The notes: generated from the sequence alone by a model not told the origin. A stretch of 11,617 nt of DNA from Anaerolineae bacterium (GCA_016931785.1 JAFGED010000009.1:1-11617), one strand, 5' to 3'; numbered from the stretch's first letter, positions 5,385-11,403 are shown. Numbers and translations: made by a program.

Positions 5385-7406
5385 ATGAACAGCCCAACGA
5401 ATCCTTACATCGCCGGTAACCCCATCACGGGCTCGGAGATGTTCTTTGGCCGCCAGGACGTGTTCTGCTTCGTGCGGGAGACGCTGGTGGGGCGCTACCA
5501 GGATAACGCCATCGTTCTCTACGGCGGACGGCGAACGGGCAAAACCTCGGTTCTCTACCAGATGGGCCGCCACCTCGATCCCAAGTACGTGCCTGTCTTC
5601 GTGGATCTGCAGGCAGTCTCCTTGGGCGGGTTGGGGGAGATGCTGTGGGGGATCGCGCGCCAGGCCGTGCGGGTGTTGCGCCAGCAGAAGGGGATCAAGT
5701 TGAGCATCCCCTCGCGTGAGGAATTCGCCAGGGACCCGGAGGGTTGCTTCTACGAGCGCTTTCTCGATCCCGCCCTGGAAGCCCTTGGCGACGGGCATCT
5801 CCTGTTGATGCTGGACGAGGCCGCGCGGCTCTACGAGCAGGTACACGCCGGGCGGCTGGAGCCCCGCGCCTTTGACTTTCTTCGCAGTTTGATCCAGTAT
5901 CACTCTCGCCTGAACTTTATCTTTTCCATCGGCAGCGGCCTGGAGGAGATGCGGCGCGAGTATGCTCTCCTGTTCAATCTGTGCCAATATCGCAAGATCA
6001 GCTTCCTCGACCGGGACGCAGCCGTGGCGCTCATCACCAAGCCAGTCGAGGAGCATTATCGATACGCGCCCGGCGCGGTGGATCGAATTCTGGACGAGAC
6101 CTGCGGGCACCCCTACTACACTCAACTGGTGTGCAACCGTCTCTTTGCCCGCTGGGCCCGCCACGACGGCGACGAGGTGACCCCTGCCGACGTTGAGGCT
6201 GTTCTGGGCGAAGCGGTCGAGCAGGGCATGGCCAGCCTCCAGTACACCTGGGAGGAGGCCTCCGACGCCGCCAAGGTCGTTTTGGCGGCGCTGACCGAGC
6301 TTATGAAGGACAGTAACGGGTCCGTCAGCTTGAGCGATTTGGAAGACGTCCTTGCTGCCGAAGAGATCGCGCTCTCGCGCCGTGCGGTCGGCCGGGCGCT
6401 GCAAGAGCTGGTAGTGAGAGAGGTGTTGTATTCCACCCGTGAGGGCTATGCGTTCACCCTGGACCTTATGCGGCTGTGGGTCAAGCAGTATCAACATTTG
6501 GAGTGGGTCAAGGGCCAGGTCGCTCTCCCTGTGGAGGTGAGTGCACCTGCCAAGCGAGATTGGGTCCGCGTGACCCTCGCCGGTGTATCGGCCGGGTTGT
6601 TGTTTCTGATGGTCGGCCTTTCCATCATCGTCTGGCGCAGCATAGAGCGAGACAGGACCGAGAGGCAGGCTTCTGCGACGGCGATGTACGGCACCATCGA
6701 GGCTCTGAGGACCCGTGTCGCGCAGGTGCCCAGCGGGGCTCTTGAGCAGGCAGAGCTCAGCACAGAGATAGCGCTAAAAGAGACCGAGGTCGTGGGTGTG
6801 GCGACGGCGCTTCCCACGCAAGAACCTCCTATTACGCCAACTGCCGTCCCACTGCCTACTTATACCTCTACCCCCATTCCCACTCCCACGCCCAGCCCTA
6901 CGCCGGAGTGTTTGCCAGGGGATGGCCCATTCGTCGATATTTGGGAAGCCGATCAAGGCGCATTGGGATGTGCAAGGGACGTATCCCAGGCAGTCGAGGG
7001 AGCGAAGCAGGCGTTTGAAGGGGGGATGATGATCTGGCGGGGGGAAACCGATCAGATCATCGTCCTGTATAGCAATTCTGAATGGGCTTTGTACGACGGC
7101 ACCTGGAAGGAAGGTGATCCTTACATACATCCAGACTGCGAGTCGATGATACCGCCGACGACCAGCCTCTACCTACCTGTCCGCAGCTTTGGCAAACTCT
7201 GGTGTACCAATGAACCAGCACGCGAGAGGCTGGATTGGGCCACTGAGAAGGAGCGGGAGTGGGCCGGTATGGTACAGGAGTTTCAGGGCGGGCTGACCAT
7301 GATGCTCGCTTATGACGACACCGTGGAAGCATTCATATTCTATTGTGAGGACAAGACGTGTACCGGTGGAAAGTGGCGGCCACCGTCGATGCAGATACAG
7401 CGGTAG
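5385..7406 (+). CDS. Membrane-anchored STAND/AAA_35-like P-loop NTPase with an extracytoplasmic Pro/Thr linker and a Cys-containing LGFP-like C-terminal domain.
   Basis: Start moved to ATG 5385 (GGGAGGAG upstream). This aligns 'MNSPTNPYIAGNPITGSEMFFGR' with the paralog's N-terminus. Walker A 'GGRRTGKTS' near 5521-5550. Walker B 'LLLMLDEAA' near 5806-5820. wHTH-like segment. TM helix 'VTLAGVSAGLLFLMVGLSIIVW' near 6571-6633. PT linker 'PTQEPPITPTAVPLPTYTSTPIPTPTPSPTPE'. Six Cys after it, with LGFP-like 'LGCARDVSQAVEGAKQAFEGGMMIW' and 'LDWATEKEREWAGMVQEFQGGLTMM'. Confidence 0.85.
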   Translation: MNSPTNPYIAGNPITGSEMFFGRQDVFCFVRETLVGRYQDNAIVLYGGRRTGKTSVLYQMGRHLDPKYVPVFVDLQAVSLGGLGEMLWGIARQAVRVLRQQKGIKLSIPSREEFARDPEGCFYERFLDPALEALGDGHLLLMLDEAARLYEQVHAGRLEPRAFDFLRSLIQYHSRLNFIFSIGSGLEEMRREYALLFNLCQYRKISFLDRDAAVALITKPVEEHYRYAPGAVDRILDETCGHPYYTQLVCNRLFARWARHDGDEVTPADVEAVLGEAVEQGMASLQYTWEEASDAAKVVLAALTELMKDSNGSVSLSDLEDVLAAEEIALSRRAVGRALQELVVREVLYSTREGYAFTLDLMRLWVKQYQHLEWVKGQVALPVEVSAPAKRDWVRVTLAGVSAGLLFLMVGLSIIVWRSIERDRTERQASATAMYGTIEALRTRVAQVPSGALEQAELSTEIALKETEVVGVATALPTQEPPITPTAVPLPTYTSTPIPTPTPSPTPECLPGDGPFVDIWEADQGALGCARDVSQAVEGAKQAFEGGMMIWRGETDQIIVLYSNSEWALYDGTWKEGDPYIHPDCESMIPPTTSLYLPVRSFGKLWCTNEPARERLDWATEKEREWAGMVQEFQGGLTMMLAYDDTVEAFIFYCEDKTCTGGKWRPPSMQIQR

Positions 7407-7447
7407 TAGCTGGTTGCCTCGGATGATTTCGCTACAAGGGAGCACAT

Positions 7448-8749
7448 ATGCCGACTAATCCTTTTACCTATGGCAATCCCATCTCCGCCCCGGAGCGCTT
7501 TTTTGGGCGCAAGGCCGAGGTGGAACAGGTCTACACGCGCCTGCTCAACGCCGAGTTCGAAAGCAGTTCCATCGTCGGCGAGCGGCGGATGGGCAAGACG
7601 TCGTTGCTCAATTACATCGCGCACCCCTCCACCGCCGAGGCCCACGGTTTGACCCCAGGCCGCTATCTCTTTGTCTACGTCGATCTGCAGATGGTGGATC
7701 AAAAGACGACGCCGACGCGCTTCTGGTCTCGACTTTTGCGCCGCGCTGCCCGCGAGCTGAACGACGAAGGACTCAAGGCCGAATTCGAGCAGGCCGCCGG
7801 TCAAGAGGAAATCGATAACTATACCTTGGACGATCTTTTCTCCCTCGTTGACGAGCAAGACCTTCACTTTGTTTTGCTGTTGGACGAGTTCGAGAACGTC
7901 ACCGAGAACGCCAATTTTGACACCGACTTTTTCTACGGGCTGCGAGCCCTGGCGATCCATCACAATCTGGCCTTGATCACCGCCAGTCGGCAGGAGCTGA
8001 TCACGCTATGCCACTCCGACGCCGTGCGCGCCTCTCCTTTTTTCAACATCTTTGCCAACGTCAACCTGCCCGCCTTCGGTGAGGAAGAAGCCCGCGCGCT
8101 TGTCGAGCGGTCCCTGGCAGAGACCTGCGTGCAGTTTGCGCCAGCGGAACTGGCGCTGATATCGAATATCGCTGGCTCTCATCCCTATTTTCTCCAAATC
8201 GCCGCCCATTTTCTCTTCGCCGCCTACTGCAAAGGAGGCGCCGCACAGGAGAGAGAGCGGTATCTACTGCGGGAATTCGAGGAAGAGGCGACGCCCAGCC
8301 TGGCCGACTATTGGCATCACTCGGACGATGGCGAAAAGATCGTGCTCTCCGCACTGGCGTTGCTGGCGAGACAGGGGAAGGCAGGAAAGCGGCGTTTCTC
8401 GCTGGGCAAGTTGAAAGAGCTCTACCATCGTTCTGAGCTTACCCTCTCCTGGTTGGAGAAGCGCGCCTTGATCACCGCTGATGGGGAGGGATACACGCTG
8501 TTCTCCAGCGTGTTCGGCGATTGGATCGTCGCTGAGCTAACGGGCGTGATGGCCGACGCGCAGTCGTATGAGGAATGGCTGGCGGCCAATCAGAGTGCTT
8601 TACAACGTTTCTCCCGCTCGACCCGCGACGAAATCAGCGAGATACTGCCTCAGATCAAGGCCGGATATCGCCAGTTCGTCGTGGATTGGCTTTCCAATCC
8701 CCAGACGCTGGTCAGCGCGGCCTCGTTGCTCCGGAGTGTGTTTAGTTGA
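7448..8749 (+). CDS. Soluble paralogous STAND/AAA_35-like P-loop NTPase.
   Basis: N-terminus 'MPTNPFTYGNPISAPERFFGRKAEVE'. Walker A 'GERRMGKTS' near 7575-7603. Walker B 'VLLLDEFEN' near 7871-7900. C-terminal wHTH-like region. Lies 41 nt after the paralog. Confidence 0.85.
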   Translation: MPTNPFTYGNPISAPERFFGRKAEVEQVYTRLLNAEFESSSIVGERRMGKTSLLNYIAHPSTAEAHGLTPGRYLFVYVDLQMVDQKTTPTRFWSRLLRRAARELNDEGLKAEFEQAAGQEEIDNYTLDDLFSLVDEQDLHFVLLLDEFENVTENANFDTDFFYGLRALAIHHNLALITASRQELITLCHSDAVRASPFFNIFANVNLPAFGEEEARALVERSLAETCVQFAPAELALISNIAGSHPYFLQIAAHFLFAAYCKGGAAQERERYLLREFEEEATPSLADYWHHSDDGEKIVLSALALLARQGKAGKRRFSLGKLKELYHRSELTLSWLEKRALITADGEGYTLFSSVFGDWIVAELTGVMADAQSYEEWLAANQSALQRFSRSTRDEISEILPQIKAGYRQFVVDWLSNPQTLVSAASLLRSVFS

Positions 8750-9666
8750 CGGCCCAGGTAACGCGCCCTGTCTGTGATTATGAAGGTTCCGCTTACCGCA
8801 CCGAGTTCTGGGGACGCGGGCGGGAGTACGAGGACGGGGCCGAGCGGGCGGCGCTGCGCCACCTGCTGCCGCCTACCGGTCGCCGCCTGATCGACATCGG
8901 CGGGGGGTACGGGCGGATCTTTCCCCTCTACGGCGGCTACGACGAGGTGGTGCTGTTCGACTACGCGCGCTCGCAGCTGCAGCAGGGGCGGGAGTTGTGG
9001 GGGGATGCCGGCCCCGGCGGCAAGCCGCGCTACACGTACGTCGCAGGTGACTTTTATAAATTCCCCTTCGTCCCGGGCCTCTTTGATGCGGTGGTGATGG
9101 TGCGCACGCTCCATCACGCCGCCGACGCGCCGGCGGTGCTGCGCGGCGTGGCGCAGATGCTTGCCCCGGGGGGCGCGTTCGTGTTGGAATTCGCCAACAA
9201 GCGCAACCTCAAAGCCATCCTGCGCCGCCTGCTGCAGCGACAGGATTGGTCGCCCTTCGACCGGGAGCCGGTAGAGTTTGCCAAGCTGAACTTTGACTTC
9301 CACCCGGCTTGGATGCGTGAGCGCCTGAACGAGGCCGGGCTGCGCGTGCGGGAAACGCGCGCCGTCTCCCACTTTCGGATCGGCCTGCTCAAGCGCGTGG
9401 CGCCCACGGGGCTTTTGGTGGCGCTCGACCGGCTGGTACAACCGACGGGGGCGCTGTGCCAGCTTTCGCCCAGCGTTTTCGTGCGCTGCCAGGGTGGCGG
9501 CAAAACCGCCGCGCCCGCGGGCGCTTTTTTCCGTTGCACTATTTGTGGTTCGACGATGCTTGTAGAGAAAGGGGAGATCCTATCCTGCGCCAACTGCGGC
9601 GCGCGTTTCGCGATGCGTGATGGGGTCTATGATTTCAAGGCCCCGCTGGAGGGAGGTAGAGGATGA
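8746..9666 (+). CDS. Class I SAM-dependent methyltransferase with a C-terminal Trm112-like C4 zinc ribbon.
   Basis: TTG start overlaps the upstream TGA (TTGA, 8746-8749), with GGAG 9 nt upstream. Motif I 'LIDIGGGYGRI' near 8884-8913. 'VAGDFYKFPF...FDAVVMVRTLHH' and 'LAPGGAFVLEF' follow. C-terminus 'FRCTICGSTMLVEKGEILSCANCGARFAMRDGVYDF' near 9527-9640. No DPPY or PC DNA-MTase motifs. Confidence 0.8.
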   Translation: MTAQVTRPVCDYEGSAYRTEFWGRGREYEDGAERAALRHLLPPTGRRLIDIGGGYGRIFPLYGGYDEVVLFDYARSQLQQGRELWGDAGPGGKPRYTYVAGDFYKFPFVPGLFDAVVMVRTLHHAADAPAVLRGVAQMLAPGGAFVLEFANKRNLKAILRRLLQRQDWSPFDREPVEFAKLNFDFHPAWMRERLNEAGLRVRETRAVSHFRIGLLKRVAPTGLLVALDRLVQPTGALCQLSPSVFVRCQGGGKTAAPAGAFFRCTICGSTMLVEKGEILSCANCGARFAMRDGVYDFKAPLEGGRG

Positions 9667-10094
9667 GCGGCGCGCGGAAGGCGCTGTTTGGCGATCTGGT
9701 CTTTAACGAAGCAGGTGAGCCGGTCAGGGTGGTCGATATCGGCAACGCGCCTCACTATGCCGTGCCGGACGGGGATTTTCTGCGCCACGTCGAGGCGGCG
9801 TACGTGGACCGCCAGATTCTGGACCAGATCAAGGAGCGCATCCTGCCGATGAAGGACGCGATCATCGAGGGGATGATCCAGATGATCGGCCAGGAGAATC
9901 TGTTCACGCGCCCTGCCATCGAGAGTGCCATCGAGAACATGGATCGCATCCTCGAGACGGATGACGTCGACGTGGACGAATTGCGCACCGCGTTGTGGAT
10001 GACGGGCTTTCGCGCCACGGTGGACGTGCACGGCGAGGTGGTGGAGCTGGAGATGCCGGGGGTGGAAGCGCCGGATTGGGATGGTGACGAGTGA
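9663..10094 (+). CDS. Hypothetical small acidic protein (143 aa).
   Basis: ATG overlaps the MTase stop (ATGA, 9663-9666) and is preceded by GGAGGGAGG. High GC3. Asp/Glu-rich tail 'DWDGDE'. No family recognised. Confidence 0.7.
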   Translation: MSGARKALFGDLVFNEAGEPVRVVDIGNAPHYAVPDGDFLRHVEAAYVDRQILDQIKERILPMKDAIIEGMIQMIGQENLFTRPAIESAIENMDRILETDDVDVDELRTALWMTGFRATVDVHGEVVELEMPGVEAPDWDGDE

Positions 10095-10121
10095 AATTTT
10101 GGAAGAGCGCCAAAATTTCAC
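10091..10121 (+). other. AT-rich perfect hairpin overlapping the stop codon of the acidic-protein gene.
   Basis: GTGAAATTTTGG-aagagcg-CCAAAATTTCAC with 12-bp perfect arms. The stop TGA at 10092-10094 lies inside the left arm. Confidence 0.55.
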
Positions 10122-10127
10122 TTGAGC

Positions 10128-10160
10128 AAAAGCCGCCCAGACGAAGGCGGCTTTTGTTTG
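10128..10160 (+). terminator. Rho-independent terminator ending the plus-strand gene cluster.
   Basis: AAAAGCCGCC-cagacgaa-GGCGGCTTTT followed by GTTTG. GC stem flanked by A and T tracts. Confidence 0.7.
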
Positions 10161-10202
10161 TAAGTATTTGTAAGCATTACGGGCGAGCGTAAGGGCTTGT
10201 AC

Positions 10203-10269: not shown

Positions 10270-11403
10270 ATGAAGATCTCCTGCCTGCAAGAAAACCTCG
10301 CCAAGGGTTTGGGAATCGTTGGACGCGCAGTTTCGCCGCGCTCCACGCTGCCCGTGCTCGGCAACATTCTCCTGGCTGCCGACAATGGAAGGCTCAAGCT
10401 CTCTGCCACCAATCTGGAGGTGGGCATCAACTGTTGGATCGGGGCCAAGGTGGAGGAGGAGGGGGCGACCACCGTCCCGGCCCGCACGTTCATCGACCTG
10501 GTCAACTCCCTGCCCCCGGAGCGGGTGGATATGGAACTGGTCACGCGCACGCAGACGCTCAATCTGCACGCCGGTCGCAGCGAGGCGAACATCAAGGGCA
10601 TCGACGCGCAGGAATTCCCGCTCGTGCCGGTGCCGGAGGGCGAGGGGGGGATCTCCATCGAAGCCGAGGCCCTGCGCACGGCGATTGGGCAGGTCGCTTT
10701 CGCCGCTGCCACCGACGAGAGCCGTCCCATCCTGACCGGGGTGTTGGCCAAGTTTGAGGACGCGCAACTCACGCTGGCCGCCGCCGACGGGTTCCGTCTC
10801 TCGGTGCGCACCGTCGAATTGTCCCAGGTTGTTCCCGATCCCTTCAGCGTCATCATTCCCTCCCGGGCGCTGACCGAGTTAGGGCGCATCAGCGGCGAGC
10901 AGGAAGCCCCGGTTTCAATCACCGTCACTCCCACCCGCAACCAGGTCATCTTTCAACTGACCGACATCGTCCTGGTGTCGCAACTGATCGACGGCAATTT
11001 TCCCGACTACCGGCAGATCATTCCCAAGGACCGCACGGCGCACACGGTGGTGGATACGGCCGTGTTCCTCAAGGCGTGCAAGACGGCGCTCATTTTCGCC
11101 CGCGATGCGGCCCACATCGCCCGGTTGCACATCAAGCCCGGCTCCGAGCTGGCTCCGGGCAGCATGATCGTCTCCGCTACCTCCGCCGAAACCGGCGACG
11201 ACGTGAGCGAGTTGGATGCCAGCATCGAAGGTGACGAGATTGAGGTCGCCTTCAACGTCCGATACTTGATCGACGTGCTATCGGTGATCGGCACGCCGCA
11301 GGTGGGCTTGGATACGACCACCTCCTCCAGCCCGGGCGTTCTCCGGCCCGTAGGCGAGGAGGATTTTACCCACGTGATCATGCCGATGCATTTGGGGCGG
11401 TAG
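10270..11403 (+). CDS. dnaN: DNA polymerase III beta subunit (sliding clamp).
   Basis: 377 aa. 'MKISCLQENLAKGLGIVGRAVSPRSTLPVLGNILLAADNGRLKLSATNLEVGI' is the canonical DnaN N-terminus. Three-domain length and a strong SD. Confidence 0.95.
   Translation: MKISCLQENLAKGLGIVGRAVSPRSTLPVLGNILLAADNGRLKLSATNLEVGINCWIGAKVEEEGATTVPARTFIDLVNSLPPERVDMELVTRTQTLNLHAGRSEANIKGIDAQEFPLVPVPEGEGGISIEAEALRTAIGQVAFAAATDESRPILTGVLAKFEDAQLTLAAADGFRLSVRTVELSQVVPDPFSVIIPSRALTELGRISGEQEAPVSITVTPTRNQVIFQLTDIVLVSQLIDGNFPDYRQIIPKDRTAHTVVDTAVFLKACKTALIFARDAAHIARLHIKPGSELAPGSMIVSATSAETGDDVSELDASIEGDEIEVAFNVRYLIDVLSVIGTPQVGLDTTTSSSPGVLRPVGEEDFTHVIMPMHLGR

Follow-up and report, generated by a model that had tools for sequence, protein, structure and literature searches.

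A pair of STAND-like NTPases lies within a separate methyltransferase/acidic-protein operon upstream of dnaN in an Anaerolineae bacterium

We have analyzed a stretch of 11,617 nucleotides (nt) of DNA from an Anaerolineae bacterium (GCA_016931785.1 JAFGED010000009.1:1-11617), hereafter called the window, with the focus on positions 5385-10094. A sequence-only reading had interpreted this part as one coupled system of two paralogous STAND-like nucleoside triphosphatases (NTPases), a methyltransferase and a small acidic protein. The four open reading frames (ORFs) were found as described, all on the plus strand and with start/stop overlaps between NTPase 2 and methyltransferase (TTGA, 8746-8749) and between methyltransferase and acidic protein (ATGA, 9663-9666); however, comparison with related loci revealed that the stretch combines two separate units. 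Unit A is the NTPase pair, consisting of NTPase 1 (5385-7406) and NTPase 2 (7448-8749). Unit B consists of the methyltransferase (8746-9666), the acidic protein (9663-10094) and a third gene located upstream, p215 (4637-5284, plus strand), with which the conserved cluster begins. Methyltransferase and acidic protein thus belong to a separate, lineage-specific operon, which corrects the apparent four-gene system.

A search of the protein database with the acidic protein gave 458 matches, the best 120 of which were at least 66% identical. Loci were surveyed by a genome scan with one genome per species, which gave 22 loci, all from Anaerolineae, Anaerolineales, Thermoflexia or Chloroflexota metagenome-assembled genomes, and by a tblastn presence table of 36 genome and metagenomic loci. 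The NTPase pair was absent from 16 of the 22 genome loci; the gene order there was p215, methyltransferase and acidic protein, usually followed by dnaN encoding the DNA polymerase III beta clamp. In the tblastn table, the three unit B genes occurred together in nearly every locus, and dnaN was usually the next gene. L001, on a contig of 105 kb, and L007 contain p215, methyltransferase, acidic protein and dnaN and no NTPases. The p215 proteins of related loci were 44-71% identical, and p215 was located directly upstream of the methyltransferase gene in most of them; in NTPase-free loci its stop codon abuts or overlaps the methyltransferase start codon, several times as a TGATG overlap. The methyltransferase was 59-80% identical across related loci, with the NTPases present or not. 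Unit B is an Anaerolineae-specific operon of translationally coupled genes which is usually located just upstream of dnaN. Methyltransferase and acidic-protein genes were adjacent in nearly all loci, the exceptions being L022, where a hydrolase gene is inserted, and L036 with a solitary acidic-protein gene. Adjacency to dnaN was lost in L017 by insertion of restriction-modification (R-M) genes and also in L022, L023 and L034-L036.

Between p215 and the methyltransferase gene, the NTPase pair was found only in the window, in L004/5, L013/14, L015/16, L024 and L025 and, in degraded form, in L030. Recurrence of the four genes across unrelated genomes, proposed as a check of the coupled system, was analyzed as well: the quartet does not extend to unrelated genomes but is restricted to three sub-clades of a single order-level group, always at the same syntenic site. 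Because it is confined to one lineage and one site, its recurrence reflects descent and not independent co-selection.

The NTPase pair also exists outside this locus. Full-length homologs of NTPase 2 number more than 1000, with a gap in identity between the dnaN-linked clade (at least 68%) and the rest (at most 59%). Four contexts were sampled outside the dnaN-linked clade, namely L010, a Joint Genome Institute (JGI) contig of 183 kb, L011/L012 and L038. In all of them the soluble NTPase is immediately followed by the longer paralog, which is the reverse of the order in the window, and no methyltransferase, acidic-protein or dnaN gene was found near the pair in these four contexts. The neighbors there are housekeeping genes, e.g. 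for a penicillin-binding protein, methylmalonyl-CoA mutase, folate genes and glucokinase, and not the defence islands that the sequence-only reading had suggested to look for. The taxa named on NTPase 1 homologs were Anaerolineae, Chloroflexi/Chloroflexota and Dehalococcoidia. On a contig of 1.76 Mb (L037:5605-11557), an NTPase 1 homolog was located amid transposase genes (Transposase_mut, rve, DUF772) with a 150-amino acid (aa) nSTAND2 fragment 3 kb downstream, indicating that this pair was broken by insertion sequences.

The distribution of the pair is patchy at the dnaN locus and extends to other contexts. In a quick neighbor-joining tree calculated from the sequences of methyltransferase, acidic protein and DnaN (870 columns), the NTPase-bearing loci formed three separate clades among NTPase-free ones. 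Within these clades, the NTPase cores were 76-91% identical as compared to 82-93% for DnaN, and the GC content of the pair matched that of the host. This divergence pattern fits one old insertion followed by repeated loss under vertical descent; the pair may also have been gained through recombination between relatives. A mobile-element origin of the pair in the window was considered; flanking direct or inverted repeats, an integrase, a transposase and a deviation in GC content were all missing.

In relatives, the p215/methyltransferase/acidic-protein/dnaN locus is a hot spot for insertions. L030 contains a complete AbiEi/AbiEii toxin-antitoxin pair between NTPase 2 and methyltransferase (4363-6068), and an AbiEi remnant occupies the same position in L024 (8576-9085). 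An EcoO109I-type R-M pair was found between acidic protein and dnaN in L017 (2151-3889), and an alpha/beta hydrolase gene between methyltransferase and acidic protein in L022 (3494-4429). L030 additionally contains an ORF of 380 aa (3220-4362), in which ~300 aa from the N-terminus of NTPase 1 are followed by the C-terminal ~87 aa of NTPase 2; this chimera looks like the product of a deletion between the paralogs, by which membrane helix and outside domain were lost. Furthermore, ScmC-like and PqqD-like genes follow dnaN within 1-3 kb in L001 (12701-13775), L007 (14929-15871) and L008 (7596-8673). They may constitute a peptide-modification cluster; the window, ending shortly after dnaN, does not contain them.

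The paralogy of the two NTPases was confirmed by 28% identity over 348 aa (E = 5e-22); the motifs NP(Y/F)xxGNPI...FFGR, GxxxxGKTS and hhhhDE are common to both. NTPase 1 (673 aa from the ATG at 5385) consists of a cytoplasmic STAND-like NTPase module with winged helix (aa 1-~390), a membrane helix, a juxtamembrane helix, a Pro/Thr linker and an outside domain. It matched Pfam AAA_22 with 28 bits (cut-off 27), AAA_14 and ATPase_2 below threshold, and did not match nSTAND2. NTPase 2 (433 aa) is of STAND/ATPase_2-like fold and combines its P-loop with a helical domain and a winged helix, while the C-terminal ~70 aa form a conserved helical tail; the protein matched Pfam nSTAND2 with 70.6 bits (cut-off 24), and AAA_35 and nSTAND1 as well. 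The general STAND features were found, i.e. P-loop, helical domain, winged helix, Walker A/B, T-S-R-type sensor 1 and a G-x-P-like motif, and the NTPases do not fall into a well-characterized housekeeping family. Also in line with the sequence-only reading, only NTPase 1 possesses a hydrophobic helix (aa 394-420, nt ~6564-6644, assigned by hydrophobicity), whereas NTPase 2 has none.

Motifs were counted in 120 homologs of each NTPase. Walker A of NTPase 1 was intact in all 120, as GQRRTGKT in 96 of them and as GGRRTGKT, the variant of the window, in 15; a Walker B of the LM(L/M/I)DE(A/V) type was present in 112. In the NTPase 2 family, Walker A (GERRxGKT) and Walker B (LLLDEF) were both intact in 119 of 120 homologs. 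The membrane helix directly follows the NTPase module in 102 of 114 long NTPase 1 homologs; among the NTPase 2 homologs, a single one contained a membrane helix. NTPase 2 is conserved over its entire length, with a mean column identity of 67% among 27 diverse members, including the motifs LITxSR (STAND-type sensor 1), SPFFNIFAN and GxHPYFLQ and the C-terminal helical tail. At the sensor-1 position, the NTPase 1 family shows a conserved F-S-x-G-S-G as opposed to T-x-S-R in the NTPase 2 family. Because G-S-G replaces T-S-R at this position, NTPase 1 may bind nucleotide and hydrolyze it poorly, as hinted by the motifs.

The C-terminal domain of NTPase 1 (aa ~505-673, nt ~6897-7403) is Cys-rich and contains two LGFP-like repeats. 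It had been claimed to be extracellular. The arrangement of one helix followed by a C-terminal domain was indeed found, its position outside the membrane follows from predicted topology, and the LGFP match was weak and below threshold (E = 0.003). A direct DNA repeat is located within this domain (7004-7030 and 7271-7297, 67% identity); it corresponds to two LGFP-like units of the type Q-x-F-x-G-G-hydrophobic, so the outside domain is an internal duplication. NTPase 1 homologs elsewhere carry FGE-sulfatase, Reg_prop, N_BRCA1_IG, Laminin_G_3, 3-keto-disaccharide hydrolase or Septum_form domains instead. The domain was exchanged even at one and the same syntenic locus: the window, L004 and L016 have an LGFP-like domain, L013 and L025 one of the FGE-sulfatase type and L024 a short beta domain. 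NTPase module, membrane helix, juxtamembrane helix and Pro/Thr linker remained conserved despite this swap.

In unit B, p215 (215 aa) has no Pfam family; its membrane helix is N-terminal (aa ~13-45), and its C-terminal part is acidic, rich in proline and repeat-like. The methyltransferase (306 aa, TTG start, pI 9.4) was confirmed as a class-I S-adenosylmethionine (SAM)-dependent enzyme by matches to Methyltransf_11 (49.4 bits, cut-off 21.2; E = 7e-13) and Methyltransf_25 (45.8 bits, cut-off 27; E = 1e-11), and the nearest solved structures among PDB sequence matches are methyltransferases of the small-molecule type. As had been stated, it is not a DNA methyltransferase: no DNA methylase model matched the 8746-9666 product, unlike the N6_N4 methylase encoded at 660-2075, so it is not an R-M methylase. 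The C-terminal ribbon previously assigned to Trm112 (aa 263-291, nt ~9532-9618) does contain the four cysteines of a Cys4 zinc ribbon in the form CxxC...CxxC, but the Trm112 assignment itself did not hold: Trm112p was not among the best 25 models, and only generic ribbon models (FtrD-like, LysW, RPAB4, A2L) were obtained, all below threshold.

The acidic protein (143 aa, pI 4.26, net charge about -19) had been described as lacking a recognizable family, and in fact no Pfam, NCBIfam or PADLOC family matched it; searches of PDB sequences with two profiles, one of them built from 34 sequences, gave no match either. Its own family is small, numbering 122 clusters at 50% identity in a set of 1.8 billion representatives. 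Among genome-encoded homologs, the most distant one (41% identity, L036:9881-10393) has no methyltransferase, p215 or dnaN gene alongside; it is flanked by a divergent gene encoding 356 aa, with an enolase gene beyond, and by a gene for a large membrane protein. Distant homologs were also found on contigs of ~1.5 kb, one of them preceded by a gene whose product ends in CxxC, which weakly supports a linkage to the methyltransferase. The basic methyltransferase and the acidic protein might form a complex, in which the acidic protein would be partner or substrate; this low-confidence proposal is based on the contrasting isoelectric points, the ATGA overlap and the adjacency of the two genes in nearly all loci.

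Taken together, we consider it probable, with some reserve, that the locus consists of the unit B operon and an optional NTPase switch cassette, unit A, placed between its first and second genes. Unit A would probably be co-transcribed with unit B from a start upstream of 4637. According to the predicted topology, NTPase 1 would display a swappable lectin-like or glycan-binding domain outside the cell, and a ligand signal could reach the cytoplasmic NTPase 1 module via the single membrane helix and the juxtamembrane helix. This module may then assemble with NTPase 2 into an NTP-dependent hetero-oligomer. NTPase 2, which retains the T-S-R sensor 1, would be the likelier hydrolyzing subunit, since NTPase 1 possesses Walker A and B but G-S-G; the output may proceed via the conserved C-terminal helical tail of NTPase 2. 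A function of unit A as an outside-in switch sensing the envelope or glycans is our tentative preference over a role in defence, held with slightly less than even confidence.

Several points weigh against this interpretation. The tree separating the three NTPase-bearing clades carries no support values. In these clades, the pair is located at exactly one site and its stop codon overlaps the methyltransferase start codon, so pair and unit B may be functionally linked in those lineages. No effector or output domain such as HEPN, GT4, TIR or a nuclease was found in either NTPase or in the constant neighbors. Finally, a conflict system fits several features as well as a housekeeping sensor or better, namely the nSTAND2 assignment, the patchiness, the decay, the sensor swaps and the AbiE and R-M insertions. 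Such an nSTAND2-type anti-phage or conflict system, in which the outside domain would detect an invader or envelope damage caused by it, the hetero-oligomer would trigger a response through some effector, and unit B would be a bystander, is a serious candidate, albeit a distinctly less likely one. NTPase 2 matches the Pfam nSTAND2 model well above the cut-off, and in its original definition (PMC8195603) this family is a mobile operon of two genes for paired STAND NTPases, termed "counter-invader". The patchy presence of the pair at the locus, its decayed copies (the L030 chimera and the insertion sequences in L037) and the exchange of the sensor domain at a single locus are consistent with this idea, as are the entry of AbiEi/AbiEii and R-M cassettes into the same locus in relatives and the R-M pair nearby in the window. 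The missing effector domain, however, argues against defence as well, and both P-loops are intact, unlike in the described nSTAND2 system. PADLOC-DB 2.0 gave no meaningful match: none for NTPase 1 and the acidic protein, matches with E ~0.002 only (mad8, PDC-S27) for NTPase 2, and for the methyltransferase a match to mad2 over the generic Rossmann region only. Moreover, the NTPase cores are about as conserved as the housekeeping neighbors and of native GC content, and in other genomes the pair resides among housekeeping genes and not in defence islands. Known antiviral STAND proteins recognize cytoplasmic phage proteins, and an outward sensor would be unusual among them.

A single system of four or five genes, in which the transmembrane NTPase and its paralog would control the methyltransferase and the acidic protein, appears very improbable. 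The genes are tightly packed on one strand, joined by the TTGA and ATGA overlaps and followed by one terminator, and several metagenomic and genome loci share this arrangement at 76-92% identity; however, p215, methyltransferase and acidic protein persist without NTPases in most genome loci, the pair occurs elsewhere in reversed gene order without methyltransferase or acidic protein, and the AbiE cassette parts NTPase 2 from the methyltransferase in L030 and L024. Also unlikely is an action of unit B on DNA or replication, with the acidic protein as a DNA mimic or a DNA-site binder derived from a recombinase domain and the methyltransferase working at the dnaN/origin region. The usual location of the acidic-protein gene directly upstream of dnaN speaks for this idea, and the zinc ribbon on the methyltransferase would agree with it. 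Furthermore, two independent fold searches related the predicted fold of the acidic protein to the recombinase domain by which large serine recombinases bind DNA, but the underlying model is of moderate confidence (predicted local distance difference test, pLDDT, 76; template modeling, TM, score ~0.47-0.49), which also counts against our interpretation. With its strong negative charge, the acidic protein is unlikely to bind DNA directly; it shows no sequence similarity to recombinases and has no catalytic resolvase domain, the methyltransferase matches small-molecule/protein-type families and not DNA methylases, and adjacency to dnaN is lost in several loci (L017, L022, L023, L034-L036). We rank a replication or DNA-mimic role below the methyltransferase/acidic-protein complex. 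The combination of the unit B operon with an optional NTPase switch remains our preferred interpretation.

The transcription signals of the window were analyzed for both units. The strong terminator claimed previously was confirmed by folding: two tandem hairpins (10090-10159) followed by a U-run gave -37.6 kcal/mol (z = -6.9), a value reached by none of 200 shuffled sequences, whereas a promoter/terminator scanner had missed this element. Hairpin 1 (10090-10122, plus strand) is a perfect, A+T-rich stem of 13 bp (AGUGAAAUUUUGG...CCAAAAUUUCACU), which overlaps the stop codon of the acidic protein and is located directly ahead of the G+C-rich terminator hairpin. Hairpin 2 (10124-10159), with a G+C-rich stem of 14 bp followed by UUUUGUUUG up to position 10167, constitutes the intrinsic terminator. 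The cluster had also been credited with its own promoter. A promoter scan of the 100 bp separating p215 from NTPase 1 (5285-5384, plus strand) gave no promoter-like site; a TTGACA there lacks a -10 partner and shows no conservation among related loci, whose spacers measure 40-100 bp. The unit does not begin at 5385. Since p215 is itself a member of the conserved cluster, it most likely marks the start of the transcription unit. The ATG of NTPase 1 at 5385 is preceded by GGAGG.

The remaining genes of the window were annotated as follows. An NgoMIV-type restriction enzyme of 210 aa (68-700, minus strand) overlaps the gene of an N6/N4 DNA methylase, assigned by family match (660-2075, minus strand), by 41 nt; the enzyme spans profile positions 1-167 of 275 and is probably truncated. 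The GC content of this R-M island is 0.44-0.51 as compared to 0.58-0.68 for the remaining window, suggesting recent acquisition. The sequence-only reading had placed the cluster next to the island; the R-M pair at 68-2075 is real, but three conserved genes intervene before the cluster. A LysE transporter gene (2169-2777, minus strand) is followed by a gene for a Band_7/SPFH protein of 500 aa (2931-4433, minus strand), a conserved neighbor with 82% identity in L001/L002. This protein matched the major vault protein (MVP) "shoulder" below threshold and the vault repeat weakly, and may be a bacterial relative of the MVP shoulder region. Downstream of the terminator, dnaN (10270-11403, plus strand) matched all three DNA_pol3_beta domains. 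Long ORFs on the minus strand (e.g. 5328-6497, 7340-7963, 8650-9441) were dismissed as by-products of high GC content because the plus-strand ORFs have hundreds of homologs. No Rfam families were found in the window.

STAND/NLR-type switches are known as cytoplasmic sensors. If our interpretation is correct, a two-protein, membrane-anchored version would extend this logic to sensing outside the cell. New are a widespread transmembrane variant of the paired-STAND design and an uncharacterized operon usually located beside dnaN; in addition, the acidic protein is predicted to adopt a fold unexpected for such a strongly acidic protein, that of the recombinase domain of serine integrases. The Chloroflexota pair, which has more than 1000 homologs, none of them studied, would then represent a compact testable system. 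For both units, broad importance is unlikely before a phenotype is found. That the pair constitutes an undescribed class of outside-in STAND receptors, a transmembrane bacterial counterpart of intracellular NLRs, is a speculative and rather doubtful proposal; a literature search on transmembrane bacterial STAND receptors gave nothing relevant.

The architecture had been regarded as unmatched by any described system. A two-gene operon of paired nSTAND2 NTPases, although of different make-up, was however predicted in 2021 (Kaur, Iyer, Burroughs & Aravind, eLife 2021, PMC8195603), which is the source of the Pfam nSTAND2 family; the operon is predicted there to counter invaders. In one of its two partners the NTP-binding motifs are eroded, and this partner carries a variable effector, mostly GT4 or HEPN and often with tetratricopeptide repeats (TPRs), while the available part of the source table names Proteobacteria only as hosts (PMC8195603). 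The Chloroflexota pair likewise consists of two adjacent genes for STAND NTPases with winged helix, carries one variable C-terminal module and occurs in differing genomic contexts; NTPase 2 also matches the nSTAND2 model. It differs in that Walker A and B are intact in both partners, the variable module is located beyond a membrane helix and is sensor- or lectin-like, no effector is present and the hosts are Chloroflexota. We set the pair apart from the nSTAND2 operon because both P-loops are intact and a cytoplasmic effector is missing. The archaeal ATPase_2 proteins PABY2304 (PDB 2qen) and SSO1545 (PDB 2fna), 15-16% identical, are single, soluble proteins without a membrane-anchored paralog. 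Plant NB-ARC resistosomes, CED-4 and bacterial Avs proteins sense in the cytoplasm by C-terminal repeats and carry N-terminal effectors. In contrast to these NLR-like and antiviral STAND proteins, the Chloroflexota pair is split into two paralogs, its sensor is predicted to be outside the membrane, and no effector was found in it.

The proteins of unit B can be compared with known systems as well. The Recombinase domain of Bxb1, PhiC31, A118 and SPbeta belongs to large serine recombinases and binds DNA, whereas the acidic protein stands alone, without a resolvase or zinc-ribbon/coiled-coil domain in its chain, is strongly acidic and resembles this domain at the level of fold only. Methyltransferases working with a zinc-ribbon module are known as well: the Trm112-dependent ones and the RlmA-type enzymes with an N-terminal zinc ribbon. 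Like these, the unit B enzyme combines a class-I Rossmann methyltransferase with a Cys4 ribbon, the RDG-hydrophobic-x-DF ending of which resembles that of Trm112-type ribbons. Unlike these, it has an acidic, recombinase-domain-like partner without counterpart there, and its ribbon is fused C-terminally to the methyltransferase itself.

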